From an uncultured virus (IMG/VR IMGVR_UViG_3300030708_001952) (taxonomy: Duplodnaviria > Heunggongvirae > Uroviricota > Caudoviricetes), in IMG/VR virus record IMGVR_UViG_3300030708_001952: a stretch of 64,000 bases of DNA. One strand, 5' to 3'. The position numbers and the translations under genes were made by a program. Numbering within the stretch: position 1 is the stretch's first letter; every line of letters starts with the position of its first letter. The notes beneath the pieces are model-generated. The model was not told the DNA's origin. It made no database searches and saw only the letters and a program-made list of their open reading frames with translations. Positions 1,183 to 27,654 of the stretch are shown here, one piece after another.

Positions 1183-1404
1183 ATGCCATTATCTATTACA
1201 TTGTTCTTCAGTGCCGTTTCGTGCGTAATCTTTTTTGTTCTCGGCGGCATTATTGGTTGGGTCGGTAACGACTATGTTTTCTCTATGGCAGGAGGAAAGG
1301 ATGAAGAACCCTATGATCACCCCGAGATGTATGATTCTCGTGGACGGGCATTCACAGGAGAACTTCTTTCTCTTCAATTCACTGACGAGGAAGACGAGGA
1401 CTAA
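1183..1404 (+). CDS. Small membrane protein, conserved cyanophage type
   Basis: AGGAG RBS upstream; N-terminal TM helix; HPEMYD motif; acidic tail. Confidence 0.75.
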   Translation: MPLSITLFFSAVSCVIFFVLGGIIGWVGNDYVFSMAGGKDEEPYDHPEMYDSRGRAFTGELLSLQFTDEEDED

Positions 1405-1423
1405 ATACTAAAAACACTTTACT

Positions 1424-1861
1424 ATGGCTGAATTATTAGTATCTGAAGTGCTCCAAAAAGTGAGCAACGCAAAGACCAAAGCGGAGAAAGTAAAACTTCT
1501 CCAGAAACACAACAGCGATGCTCTCAGGAAGGTCTTAATTATCAATTACGATCCCAGCATTGAGTCTGCACTTCCTGAGGGTGACGTCCCATACAAGCCT
1601 AACGAGGCACCAGCAGGGACCGAGCATTCGGTCCTCGCTACAGAGCACAGACTGCTCCACTACTTTGTAAAGGGTGGTGCTGATAACCTGTCTAATCTGA
1701 AGCGAGAGACGATGTTCGTAGGTCTGCTGGAGGCACTACACGAGTCTGAAGCAGAAGTAGTATGCCTAGCCAAAGACAAGAGTCTTAAGAAAAAGTTCAG
1801 GATCACTGAGAACGTAGTCAAGGAAGCGTTTCCCACTGTCCAGTGGGGTAACAGAAAGTAA
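1424..1861 (+). CDS. Conserved T4-like phage hypothetical protein
   Basis: 145-aa ORF with LPEGDVPY and KRETMFVGLLEALH motifs; preceded by CTAAATA late-promoter-like box. Confidence 0.8.
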   Translation: MAELLVSEVLQKVSNAKTKAEKVKLLQKHNSDALRKVLIINYDPSIESALPEGDVPYKPNEAPAGTEHSVLATEHRLLHYFVKGGADNLSNLKRETMFVGLLEALHESEAEVVCLAKDKSLKKKFRITENVVKEAFPTVQWGNRK

Positions 1862-1863
1862 AC

Positions 1864-1879
1864 TGTATCAGCGTATACA
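1864..1879. promoter_or_regulatory. NtcA-type binding box
   Basis: TGTA-tcagcgta-TACA matches the cyanobacterial NtcA consensus GTA-N8-TAC with symmetric flanks. Confidence 0.65.
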
Positions 1880-1886
1880 AACATAC

Positions 1887-1915
1887 TTGACTACATAGAG
1901 CATAGGGTGTATAGT
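1887..1915 (+). promoter_or_regulatory. Sigma70-type promoter
   Basis: TTGACT-17 bp-TATAGT directly upstream of the riboswitch-like RNA. Confidence 0.75.
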
Positions 1916-1933
1916 ACACCCATCGTTCATCCA

Positions 1934-2134
1934 ATGGTTTCTTTACTGTTGGCTTTGACCTTAGCCCATCACGATGACGCCAATCCTTATGGTTGGCATA
2001 TGTCCTGTGAAAGGTTCCTCCAGCGTAGTGTGGAGATTCAAATGGATCCCAACTTAGATCAACGATCTAAATGGAATCTGATTGGATACCTCAAGACAAA
2101 GGTGGATGGTCAATGTGATGGTACTTTAACCTGA
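1934..2134 (+). CDS. Small protein with signal-peptide-like N-terminus, inside riboswitch loop
   Basis: MVSLLLALTLAHH...; two Cys 35 residues apart. Confidence 0.7.
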   Translation: MVSLLLALTLAHHDDANPYGWHMSCERFLQRSVEIQMDPNLDQRSKWNLIGYLKTKVDGQCDGTLT

Positions 2135-2171
2135 GGACGCAAGTAAGTCGCGGAACGGAACGTTCATCCCA

Positions 2172-2333
2172 ATGATTGATCTTTTGCTATACGCTACTAT
2201 GCATTGCACCGATGCTGAGGATATGCTCCGACGTGTCGAAGCAAATGATAGTGTAAATGCAATCATCAAAGCTGAGGTGATTGAGACCGTAAAGGAAGCA
2301 ACACCTGAGTGTAATTGGGACGCAAACGACTGA
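2172..2333 (+). CDS. Small protein (53 aa) inside second riboswitch loop
   Basis: Hand-translated MIDLLLYATMHCTDAEDMLRRVEANDSVNAIIKAEVIETVKEATPECNWDAND*. Confidence 0.7.
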   Translation: MIDLLLYATMHCTDAEDMLRRVEANDSVNAIIKAEVIETVKEATPECNWDAND

Positions 2334-2397
2334 AGGAACGGGGAAACGGATCCACCGAAAGGTGAGAAGGTTAATCACCCACTTCAGGAGTAAACAA

Positions 2398-2565
2398 ATG
2401 AACACACTCAATCTCATTCGCAAGCAGATCGACAAGGCTGCTGCATTGCACGACGCACAGATTACCCACACTGCATATCGTGGTGTTGAGTATGATCAGC
2501 GTTGTGTCGAAAGCAAAGAGTCTCACGGGACTTTCTGCTATCGCGGTCGCACTTACACCAAGTGA
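2398..2565 (+). CDS. DUF4278-like small protein
   Basis: AGGAG RBS at 2386-2390; two YRG motifs (TAYRGVEY, FCYRGRTY). Confidence 0.8.
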   Translation: MNTLNLIRKQIDKAAALHDAQITHTAYRGVEYDQRCVESKESHGTFCYRGRTYTK

Positions 2566-2570
2566 TCGCT

Positions 2571-2666
2571 ATGGAAGCACTACAAGTAGTTGGACTCACG
2601 TCCCTTGGTTGTGCAGCATTCATAGCTATGATCTATGGTGAACTCCTCTTACTACATAAGGTATGA
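2571..2666 (+). CDS. 31-aa hydrophobic peptide
   Basis: MEALQVVGLTSLGCAAFIAMIYGELLLLHKV*; fills gap in operon. Confidence 0.55.
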   Translation: MEALQVVGLTSLGCAAFIAMIYGELLLLHKV

Positions 2667-2675
2667 GGAAGGGCA

Positions 2676-2834
2676 ATGCTGAAGGTTCGGTTTGAATACG
2701 ACCTTCCAGATTATGACCCTGACAAACACGATCCAGATAGAAAGTTCGCTTTCTTAACGTACCGTGGTGTACACTATGCCAAGTGGATTGATTTAAAATC
2801 CCGAGGCAATAAAAACTGGAAGATCAATAACTGA
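2676..2834 (+). CDS. DUF4278-like small protein (52 aa)
   Basis: Contains FLTYRGVHY motif; GAGGAAGG upstream. Confidence 0.7.
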   Translation: MLKVRFEYDLPDYDPDKHDPDRKFAFLTYRGVHYAKWIDLKSRGNKNWKINN

Positions 2835-2859
2835 GGGGGGTTGCGACCCCTCTTTTTTT
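2833..2859 (+). terminator. Rho-independent terminator ending the riboswitch/DUF4278 operon
   Basis: GAGGGG...CCCCTC stem plus T7. Confidence 0.8.
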
Positions 2860-2890
2860 GTGCTACTATATACTTAAACGCGGTGCGCTT

Positions 2891-3112
2891 ATGGAACCCA
2901 ACAGGGAACGACTGAAGTTAATTCTTCAGAATCTCAAGTCACTAGTCAACGCCCTAGAGGCTGAGATCTATTCTGATCCCGAAGCATACCAGGCTCCTAT
3001 TGGTGGTGAAACCAAAGGAACTCCTAGTTACCTTAATGTGAAGTACGAGGACCTCTTCTCCAACACCCTCACTTATAATGAAATCAACGACGATGACGGA
3101 ATCCCAGACTGA
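2891..3112 (+). CDS. Conserved cyanophage hypothetical protein
   Basis: RERLKLILQNLKSLVNALEAEIYSD...DDDGIPD. Confidence 0.75.
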   Translation: MEPNRERLKLILQNLKSLVNALEAEIYSDPEAYQAPIGGETKGTPSYLNVKYEDLFSNTLTYNEINDDDGIPD

Positions 3113-9659: not shown

Positions 9660-9731
9660 TCCCAAGTAGCTCAGTGGCAGAGCCATCGACTGTTAATCGA
9701 TTGGTCGCTGGTTCAAATCCAGCCTTGGGAG
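9660..9731 (+). tRNA. trnN: tRNA-Asn (GTT)
   Basis: Acceptor TCCCAAG/CTTGGGA; anticodon arm ATCGA-ctGTTaa-TCGAT; T-loop GTTCAAATC. Confidence 0.95.
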
Positions 9732-9858: not shown

Positions 9859-9931
9859 GCCTGCCTAGCTCAGCTGGTAGAGCAGGGCTTTTGTAAAGCT
9901 CAGGTCGTCGGTTCAAGTCCGTCGGTAGGCT
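9859..9931 (+). tRNA. trnT: tRNA-Thr (TGT)
   Basis: Acceptor GCCTGCC/GGTAGGC; anticodon arm GGGCT-ttTGTaa-AGCTC; GTTCAAGTC. Confidence 0.95.
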
Positions 9932-26222: not shown

Positions 26223-26295
26223 GGGAGTGTAGTCCAAAGGCAGAGACAGACGACTTAAAATCGTCACAGTGTGGGTTCGACTCCCACCACTCCTA
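26223..26295 (+). tRNA. trnL: tRNA-Leu (TAA), short variable loop
   Basis: Acceptor GGGAGTG/CACTCCT; GACGA-ctTAAaa-TCGTC; GTTCGACTC. Confidence 0.92.
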
Positions 26296-27270: not shown

Positions 27271-27435
27271 ATGCCCCGCAACCAAGTCGAAAGAGCAGAG
27301 TTAGAAGTTCGAGTTCTTAAATTAAAGAACGAATTATATGATGGAACTCATCACGATCGTAGTGGTGAATGGCACGATGGAGCGCATACTATGCTTAACC
27401 GTATACTTGACATCTTGCAAGAATACCATCTATAA
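27271..27435 (+). CDS. Hypothetical protein
   Basis: MPRNQVERAELEVRVLKLKNELY... Confidence 0.7.
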   Translation: MPRNQVERAELEVRVLKLKNELYDGTHHDRSGEWHDGAHTMLNRILDILQEYHL

Positions 27436-27438
27436 TAG

Positions 27439-27654
27439 ATGAAACAACCTATTATTATGCACTACAAACCCTATTCCCCTGAGTGGCACAGATATAGGTA
27501 TTTGAAAGAAGCGCTCGATAAATACCTAGACGACTATGTTGAGAATGACGTCATTCGTGATGACATTCTCAGCATTCTAGAATCCCGCTCTGAATCAGCA
27601 ATGGCTGAATTCAACAGAATCTCTGAATTAGAAGCAAAACTGCGAAACGACTAA
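27439..27654 (+). CDS. Hypothetical protein
   Basis: YKPYSPEWHRYRYLKEALDKYLDD. Confidence 0.7.
   Translation: MKQPIIMHYKPYSPEWHRYRYLKEALDKYLDDYVENDVIRDDILSILESRSESAMAEFNRISELEAKLRND

Follow-up and report, generated by a model that had tools for sequence, protein, structure and literature searches.

According to the accessible parts of the literature, both known classes of glutamine riboswitches are ON switches on DUF4278 genes (PMC6212724). The contacts of glutamine-II are C1, G40, C39, G18, the long-range pair C19:G41 and a triple with G35, and their glutamine-I equivalents are G59, C58 and G22 (PMC6698751). In a glutamine-II crystal dimer (PDB 6QN3) the strands are swapped, so that two hybrid pockets result, and glutamine is also bound when this RNA is assembled from two pieces (PMC6698751). 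A review of tandem riboswitches lists 157 glutamine doublets and 4 triplets, classed as pseudo-cooperative, and describes two-site riboswitches built either as a single aptamer (c-di-AMP, THF-I, preQ1-I) or as dual aptamers (glycine, guanidine-II); the terms 'nested' and 'interlock' are absent from its accessible text (Sherlock 2022, PMC9481103). Phage glnA matches are mentioned without their architecture in PMC9964418 and PMC9004378, and the accessible parts of PMC12379486, PMC12452182 and PMC9971707 contain nothing further on a nested layout. No paper on a nested glutamine riboswitch was listed by our literature search, the scope of which did not extend to Ames and Breaker 2011, Ren 2015 or three of the Additional files (1, 3, 7) of Weinberg 2010.

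The element described here is located in a T4-like marine cyanophage, within a stretch of 64,000 nucleotides that was analysed as a whole and is called the window, and it forms the leader RNA of a small operon. The window begins within a gene for a photosystem II reaction-centre protein, which we take from its translation to be psbD. A search with 1880-2850 matched 427 phage records, every one named Synechococcus, Prochlorococcus or Cyanophage. Bases 1922-2341 read as a glutamine-I (glnA-type) aptamer, the P3 loop of which contains a second, circularly permuted core (2151-2326). We refer to these as the outer and the inner head, the helices of the latter being P1' and P2', and to the following features:

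1887..1915, plus strand: sigma-70-type promoter (TTGACT, 17 nt, TATAGT; 10/12 matches; expected start at about 1922)
1924..1928, plus strand: outer P1 5' strand CGUUC, pairing with GAACG 2336-2340
1930..2137, plus strand: outer P2, a 3-bp closing stem (1930-32/2135-37) with ORF1 as its loop
1934..2134, plus strand: ORF1 in the outer P2 loop (66 aa, phrog_6471; pN/pS 0.17 over 90 homologs)
2138..2145, plus strand: outer junction strand CGCA and E-loop 5' half AGUA (2142-45); C2140 is the long-range partner of G2341
2146..2150, plus strand: 5' strand AGUCG of the shared P3, pairing with CGACU 2327-2331
2151..2166, plus strand: inner permuted core with G2152, P1' (GAACG 2153-57/CGUUC 2161-65), the closing loop GAA 2158-60, in which G2158 is the long-range partner of C2323, and A2166
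2167..2320, plus strand: inner P2', a 7-bp stem (UCCCAAU 2167-73/AUUGGGA 2314-20) with most of ORF2 as its loop
2172..2333, plus strand: ORF2 (53 aa, phrog_504; pN/pS 0.45 over 37 homologs), beginning in P2' and crossing the inner CGCA and P3
2321..2326, plus strand: inner junction strand CGCAAA (CGCA-AA), without E-loop
2327..2341, plus strand: P3 3' strand (2327-31), E-loop 3' half (2332-35), outer P1 3' strand (2336-40) and G2341
2382..2390, plus strand: CUUCAG (2382-87), ligand-free partner of CUGAAG 2330-35, overlapping the ribosome-binding site AGGAG (2386-90)
2398..2565, plus strand: the regulated gene, encoding a 55-aa DUF4278-like (IF17-like) protein, phrog_545
2571-2666 and 2676-2834: two further small ORFs of the operon
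2833..2854, plus strand: intrinsic-terminator-like hairpin downstream of these two ORFs

Each coordinate of the initial annotation, including those of GAACG 2153-57, CGUUC 2161-65 and CGCAAA 2321-26, agrees with the sequence. The promoter search returned 2 sites compared with 2.0 in shuffles, i.e. not above chance by itself; in the homologs a promoter is likewise placed directly 5' of the element. The -10 box is centred in an inverted repeat (1905-1921; a similar one lies near 27407-27445), and among 337 distinct stretches upstream of homologs, 238 have such a repeat with arms of at least 6, compared with 25 after shuffling; the arm sequences differ. As the 3' arm stops just 5' of the expected start, the repeat may be a DNA-level promoter feature. 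The regulated gene matches PF14105 with an E value of 1.8e-4 and 22.2 bits, below the cut-off of 25.3, and 325 of 343 parsed downstream ORFs of homologs carry a YRG or YKG motif. The element lies 5' of a DUF4278-like gene in 73/73 loci with at least 684 nt upstream, the other 7 of 80 loci being too short. The ORF 2676-2834 of the same operon has a TYRG motif and belongs to phrog_6192, without a Pfam match. Contigs from four marine metatranscriptome runs cover the bins 1910-2824, with just one 37-nt piece elsewhere in 1300-3100; as contig ends and strand are not visible and much of the cover comes from relatives, this indicates presence in RNA libraries and not transcription.

Homologous loci were gathered via three proteins and six sequence patterns and parsed with four of the five letters per P1 strand fixed and pair 5 left free. 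Of 768 loci, 623 contained the junction, which gave 430 elements that are complete and distinct; 100 junction matches without both flanks and 95 duplicates were discarded. In fifteen of the 216 loci of the protein-found set, one of the halves did not fall within tolerance: the linker is longer by 1 nt in three, a gene is inserted in one and the rest are apparently cut off. Both P2 loops are short in 38 of the 430 elements (the compact homologs), only the inner loop is long in 252, only the outer in 9 and both in 131. The window contains the junction pattern a single time, and 100 first-order Markov copies of it not at all.

Rfam gave no riboswitch in the window even at E 10 and, at the gathering threshold, three tRNAs only (tRNA genes are located at 9660-9731, 9859-9931 and 26223-26295); five sub-threshold matches near the element are all unrelated. 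Compact homologs did match: 8 of 14 scanned loci reach 35 bits with RF01739, four with one half and four over the whole outer aptamer (38.4-43.6 bits, with a P3-loop insert of 38-46 nt), and 2 of the 14 gave no match at E 0.05. The window was thus probably missed because of the small conserved genes in both P2 loops. The threshold of the glutamine-II model RF01704 was reached in one of the 14 loci.

The scores of compact homologs across the whole outer aptamer indicate that the outer head is a glutamine-I aptamer, and by structure it belongs to RF01739. The three-way junction of P1, P2 and P3 is present, with covariation in each helix, and an E-loop is found at the base of P3, formed by AGUA 2142-45 with GAA 2332-34 (in 30 of 150 homologs the first G is replaced by A, and in 2 by C). 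Outer P2 covaries strongly in the compact homologs, and in 9 of the 430 elements a change in the outer P1 strand is matched by one in the 3'-most strand; one further sequence type missed by the parser (L716/L746/L747) has G-C as outer P1 pair, a fourth kind of change. In the protein-found elements, the outer junction strand 2138-2145 is invariant (150/150), as is each pocket base scored in this head (G2139, C2339 and G2340; 150/150). The long-range C-G pair is possible in the outer head of 429 and the inner head of all 430 elements, figures which are partly imposed by the search patterns; in the protein-found loci, C2140, G2341 and G2158 are conserved in 150/150 and C2323 in 149/150. Since this pair shows no covariation here, the pairing itself is inferred from the family.

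The glutamine-I leader of Synechocystis gifB (PMC6212724) resembles the outer head in P1, P2, P3, E-loop, long-range pair and pocket; it lies 5' of a DUF4278-type gene, the present element 5' of a DUF4278-like one, and it acts as a translational ON switch, a function predicted for the present element. In the gifB model the masking strand consists of nucleotides after P1, whereas in the present element it is the P3/E-loop strand. Compared with RF01739, the P3 loop of the window's element holds a permuted second core, its P2 loops can house whole genes, and the long-range pair is C-G instead of the G-C of the Rfam consensus.

In the inner head, the same core would be permuted, with its former 3' and 5' ends joined by a linker of 2-4 nt and its chain opened at the place where a P3 loop would sit. 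The linker measures 2 nt in 293, 3 nt in 129 and 4 nt in 8 of the 430 elements (parser ceiling 5), and in the protein-found set the strand lies within 12 nt in 149/150. Partition function calculations for the window gave probabilities of 0.95 for P1' and 0.90 for P2'. P2' covaries in the homologs, the pair 2153/2165 shows compensatory change in 71 elements, and a looser scan of 423 distinct junction contexts found P1' non-complementary in none. AA 2325-26 and CG 2151-52 occupy the place of an E-loop, and the inner head is a permuted core outside RF01739 in this respect.

Counterparts of the glutamine contacts in the inner head are C2161, G2157, C2156, G2322, C2323:G2158 and G2152, which are invariant in the 150 protein-found elements except for C2323 (149), C2161 being scored in 149. 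In the inner junction strand of the same set, C2321, G2322 and A2324 are invariant and C2323 is retained in 149/150. Although C2321, A2324 and C2327 fall on third positions of ORF2 codons, they do not vary, compared with a pS of 0.41 in the ORF2 body. This conserved pocket makes a second glutamine-binding site at the inner head probable. Alternatively, glutamine might be bound by the outer head of the nested fold only, the inner core serving as a structural cap which holds P3 or times folding; we consider this unlikely. The lack of an E-loop would fit such a cap, as would the prediction that P1' and P2' form without ligand and a possible distortion of the pocket by the tight loop; in this loop of 3-5 nt the first G must also serve in the long-range pair. 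In L032, L033 and L421 the inner P1' is interrupted by a gene; the insert, in the inner 5' strand, is presumably an endonuclease-like ORF, judged by its YIG motif. In L157 and L343, an ORF which we take from its motif to be HNH-like is inserted after outer P1, at the 3' end of the element. A cap, however, needs no unpaired pocket bases, yet G2152, a position left free by the parser, is G in 430/430 elements and G2322, A2324 and G2158 are conserved in 150/150, and variation in P1' is confined to pair 5 just as in the outer head. Moreover, glutamine-II (RF01704) has a nearly identical pocket, likewise with CGCA and GAACGG, and binds glutamine through it without an E-loop (PMC6698751). The inner head lacks the pseudoknot of RF01704 with its start-proximal 3' strand; the strand following CGCA pairs instead with the P3 strand of the other half.

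The two heads share P3, and the conserved complementarity of AGUCG and CGACU which the initial annotation required is borne out by the homologs: across 303 elements with the window's type of P3, 1514 of 1515 cells are paired, including 3 compensatory changes (G-C to A-U) and 14 wobble pairs. Other P3 sequences exist, with matching partner strands. In a type from Prochlorococcus phages (114 elements), near-identical 8-mers on each side pair with two C-A mismatches, and a third type of twelve elements has a different 6-bp helix, fully paired in three. None of the 114 elements shows a discriminating P1 change; one element of the type (L757) carries a compensatory change compatible with the nested reading only, and two have a UUCG loop suiting a local hairpin. 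Nesting is likely also in this Prochlorococcus-phage type, with less support than in that of the window. The identical, nearly self-complementary strands suggest that one aptamer was duplicated and that the two copies then exchanged strands.

In 358 of the 430 elements, including the window, the P1 strands are identical and nested and tandem registers are both pairable, so that these sequences would equally accommodate two ordinary tandem aptamers (1924 with 2153 and 2161 with 2336), possibly kissing via AGUCG/CGACU or exchanging with the nested fold. The remaining 72 elements are informative. In all of them the two nested helices are Watson-Crick paired, whereas the tandem register fails, with both of its helices broken in 68 elements and a single one in 4; they comprise an inner C-G (60), an inner C-G with an outer U-A (8), an inner A-U (3) and an outer U-A alone (1). 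As three of the pattern searches deliberately enriched variants, 72/430 is no frequency; the unselected figure is 4/150. Co-change of the tandem type was found in none of the elements parsed. In a one-sided search with the inner 3' strand fixed as CAACG, CGUUG occurred at the inner position in 31 of 32 real loci, and the single exception carries a gene inserted at this position. Judged by its YIG motif, this gene is presumably endonuclease-like. Of 120 rows of this search 88 failed the P3 filter, one of which (L429) is real and compatible with nesting.

When changes were mapped on a tree built from 325 rows of the downstream gene, the inner positions changed together in 15/15 independent pairs, compared with 1.4/15 for the tandem partners; the outer pair did so in 3/3, too few for significance (p 0.25). 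Because only 12 nt separate the inner positions, which travel jointly in recombination, the number of origins is uncertain; the tree was built with FastTree from 150 nt of recombining phages, which probably overcounts origins and leaves the four kinds of substitution alone as certain. RNAalifold applied to the 38 compact homologs predicted both nested P1 helices, and pair counts in this alignment, from which P3 was excluded because its three types do not align, exceeded those of 500/500 shuffles and of all slid controls, chiefly owing to P2 and P2'. By partition function, nesting of the inner helix was favoured over the tandem alternative in 38/38 compact homologs, where the tandem pairing reached a probability of at most 0.20, and of at most 0.005 in the window.

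For the window's type of element the nested fold is, on this comparative evidence, very probable. The claim of a nested, circularly permuted second core sharing P3 has therefore held, together with the argument from the split E-loop, AGUA 2142-45 being present in the first half only and GAAG 2332-35 in the second half only. The accompanying idea that nested and tandem folds compete is unsupported, since all 72 informative elements are nested. Two tandem aptamers would gain some plausibility from a constrained energy in the window only 2.3 kcal/mol above that of the nested fold, from single halves of the Prochlorococcus-phage type which score at or above the Rfam threshold, and from two loci with a third core upstream which need some other fold. 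With either half left with half an E-loop and the register broken wherever it can be judged, the tandem arrangement is already contradicted for the window's type and highly improbable overall. In the two loci mentioned (L497, about 475-800, and L219), an extra first-half core precedes a complete nested pair at its 5' side; such three-core elements may correspond to the published triplets.

The real competitor of the aptamer fold, which the initial annotation missed, is a masking helix over the ribosome-binding site of the DUF4278-like gene. The window's minimum-energy fold without ligand retains P1' and P2' and pairs CUGAAG 2330-35 with CUUCAG 2382-87 (probability 0.98-0.99), which covers the start of AGGAG; outer P1 and P3 then have probabilities of at most 0.004. 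The nested fold was calculated at -136.7 compared with -150.1 for this minimum, a gap of 13.4 kcal/mol in an energy model which ignores ligand, E-loop and ribosomes. Homologs support the helix: among 415 elements with a located site its third letter and the partner of this letter are A-U in 102, A-C in 2, G-U in 131, G-C in 148 and others in 32, and on the tree 0 of 12 independent pairs were contrary (median p 0.016, range 0.002-0.125). It is weaker in the Prochlorococcus-phage type (90/114) and in the third type (6/12), both counted in folds without the P3 partner. A subset of homologs has an additional, optional hairpin block with a covarying stem, located between the aptamer and the ribosome-binding site (2344-2381 in the window).

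As 2330-35 is shared by P3/E-loop and masking helix, aptamer and mask are mutually exclusive and glutamine should free the ribosome-binding site; a glutamine-ON switch, in agreement with the behaviour of both known classes, is thus predicted as likely. A single transcript starting at about 1922 would adopt a pseudo-two-fold shape in which either end of the shared P3 carries a glutamine pocket, the outer head being a canonical glutamine-I three-way junction with P1 formed from the two ends of the element, P2 and the E-loop. Without glutamine, P1' and P2' would form and CUGAAG, part of the P3 3' strand and E-loop, would pair with CUUCAG and hide the ribosome-binding site of the DUF4278-like gene. 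Glutamine would steady the outer head, and probably also the inner one, so that P3 forms, the mask opens and the gene is translated, the product of which might inhibit host glutamine synthetase like IF17. The comparison of homologs supports the nested register, the pairing of P2, P2' and P3, the conserved pocket bases and the masking helix, and a nested two-pocket RNA exerting glutamine-ON control of the DUF4278-like gene is the best explanation overall, which we rate as reasonably probable. Both heads rest on P3, which offers a physical route to coupling; true cooperativity is a tentative prediction, to which we give somewhat less than even weight.

Both P2 loops of the window's element contain genes. 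ORF1 and ORF2 belong to unnamed families only in Pfam, PHROGs and Atlas. Their products share a hydrophobic N-terminus, a central cysteine and a second cysteine close to the C-terminal end, and other loop families are alike; such proteins are possibly exported disulfide-bonded peptides of common origin. Most loop ORFs end at or just beyond the other side of the stem, some families occur in either loop, and an AUG is located within 14 nt of the stem in 140/140 long outer and 381/383 long inner loops. P2' had been described as a 7-bp stem sequestering the AU of the ORF2 start codon (2172), which is correct for the window; the length of 7 bp, however, is particular to this copy. A stem of 5 bp is commonest (197 of 383 ORF-bearing loops), and in most cases (317/381) the fifth stem position is where the AUG starts, so that as a rule its A alone is paired. 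A GGAG that might serve ORF2 as ribosome-binding site occurs in the inner loop of 240 of 293 ORF-bearing window-type elements and in 0 of 10 without ORF; the window has GGAA.

Translation of the loop genes must open P2, P2' or P3, so that sensing and their translation compete on one RNA. One could therefore speculate that in ORF-bearing copies the switch is largely overridden, translation of ORF2 opening the mask and coupling to the downstream gene with only a minor role for glutamine. The ORF2 stop codon (2331-33) indeed falls inside the switching strand CUGAAG, a stop at such a place is found in 278 of 381 ORF-bearing inner loops, and the computed penalty of the nested fold in the window is large. 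Pockets and closing stems are, however, just as strictly conserved in ORF-bearing elements, which indicates continued selection on the aptamer and makes an overridden switch very improbable compared with the glutamine-ON switch proposed above.

Published 'tandem' glutamine riboswitches are partly the same RNAs. On one alignment page of Weinberg 2010 (PMC2864571), the part of this source compared, 20 of 26 rows are halves of such phage elements (19 first halves and one second half), all of them aligned with a forced P3 of 2 bp; one such row comes from phage P-SSM2, the genome of which has the complete layout. The inner-loop ORF of P-SSM2 (L768, 663-814) is without annotation in its record. In Syn9, gp196-198 show the layout as well; a listing searched for transcription-start data on Syn9 gave none. 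In the published doublets, as far as their accessible description goes, each half is a separate aptamer, whereas here the halves complete each other, as indicated by covariation, and have one expression platform. Nor does the element resemble a pseudo-cooperative tandem of independent aptamers with their own platforms, as 72/72 informative elements break the tandem register and a single masking helix was found, downstream of the entire element. Like the two-site riboswitches in the accessible part of PMC9481103, it combines two (here putative) pockets for one ligand with one expression platform; unlike these, it is neither one indivisible aptamer nor two complete neighbours, but a duplicated core with one copy permuted inside the other. 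The strand swap in 6QN3 is intermolecular and presumed non-physiological, whereas here it would be intrachain and is fixed by covariation.

The nested element would thus add an architecture, an aptamer circularly permuted inside another, that is absent from the accessible text of the tandem-riboswitch review, and would be the in-chain version of a strand-swapped dimer hitherto seen in a crystal. It offers a new reading of published phage 'tandem' glnA entries and predicts true, not pseudo-, cooperativity on natural RNAs of about 85 nt, with protein genes sitting in riboswitch loops as exchangeable cassettes. A far-reaching and rather doubtful extension would be a single-chain domain-swapped dimer which binds two glutamines cooperatively via P3 and acts as a selector, turning the IF17-like gene on while the start of the inner-loop gene is buried; T4-like cyanophages might then read host nitrogen sharply and adjust glutamine synthetase, and many published doublets would be alike. 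The leader is common in T4-like cyanophages but escaped Rfam here, so that phage nitrogen sensors of this kind, placed over an IF17-like gene, are probably more numerous than current counts show.

A search of genome_contigs with one strict pattern gave 12 matches, two of which resemble chance, and no evidence of a host chromosomal copy. The seven inspected have either the promoter or the downstream gene of the phage type, and in four with ORFs examined the neighbours resemble the window's phage genes. In one further locus (L500), a manA RNA with 174.9 bits is located at 29-226, about 220 nt downstream of a compact element.
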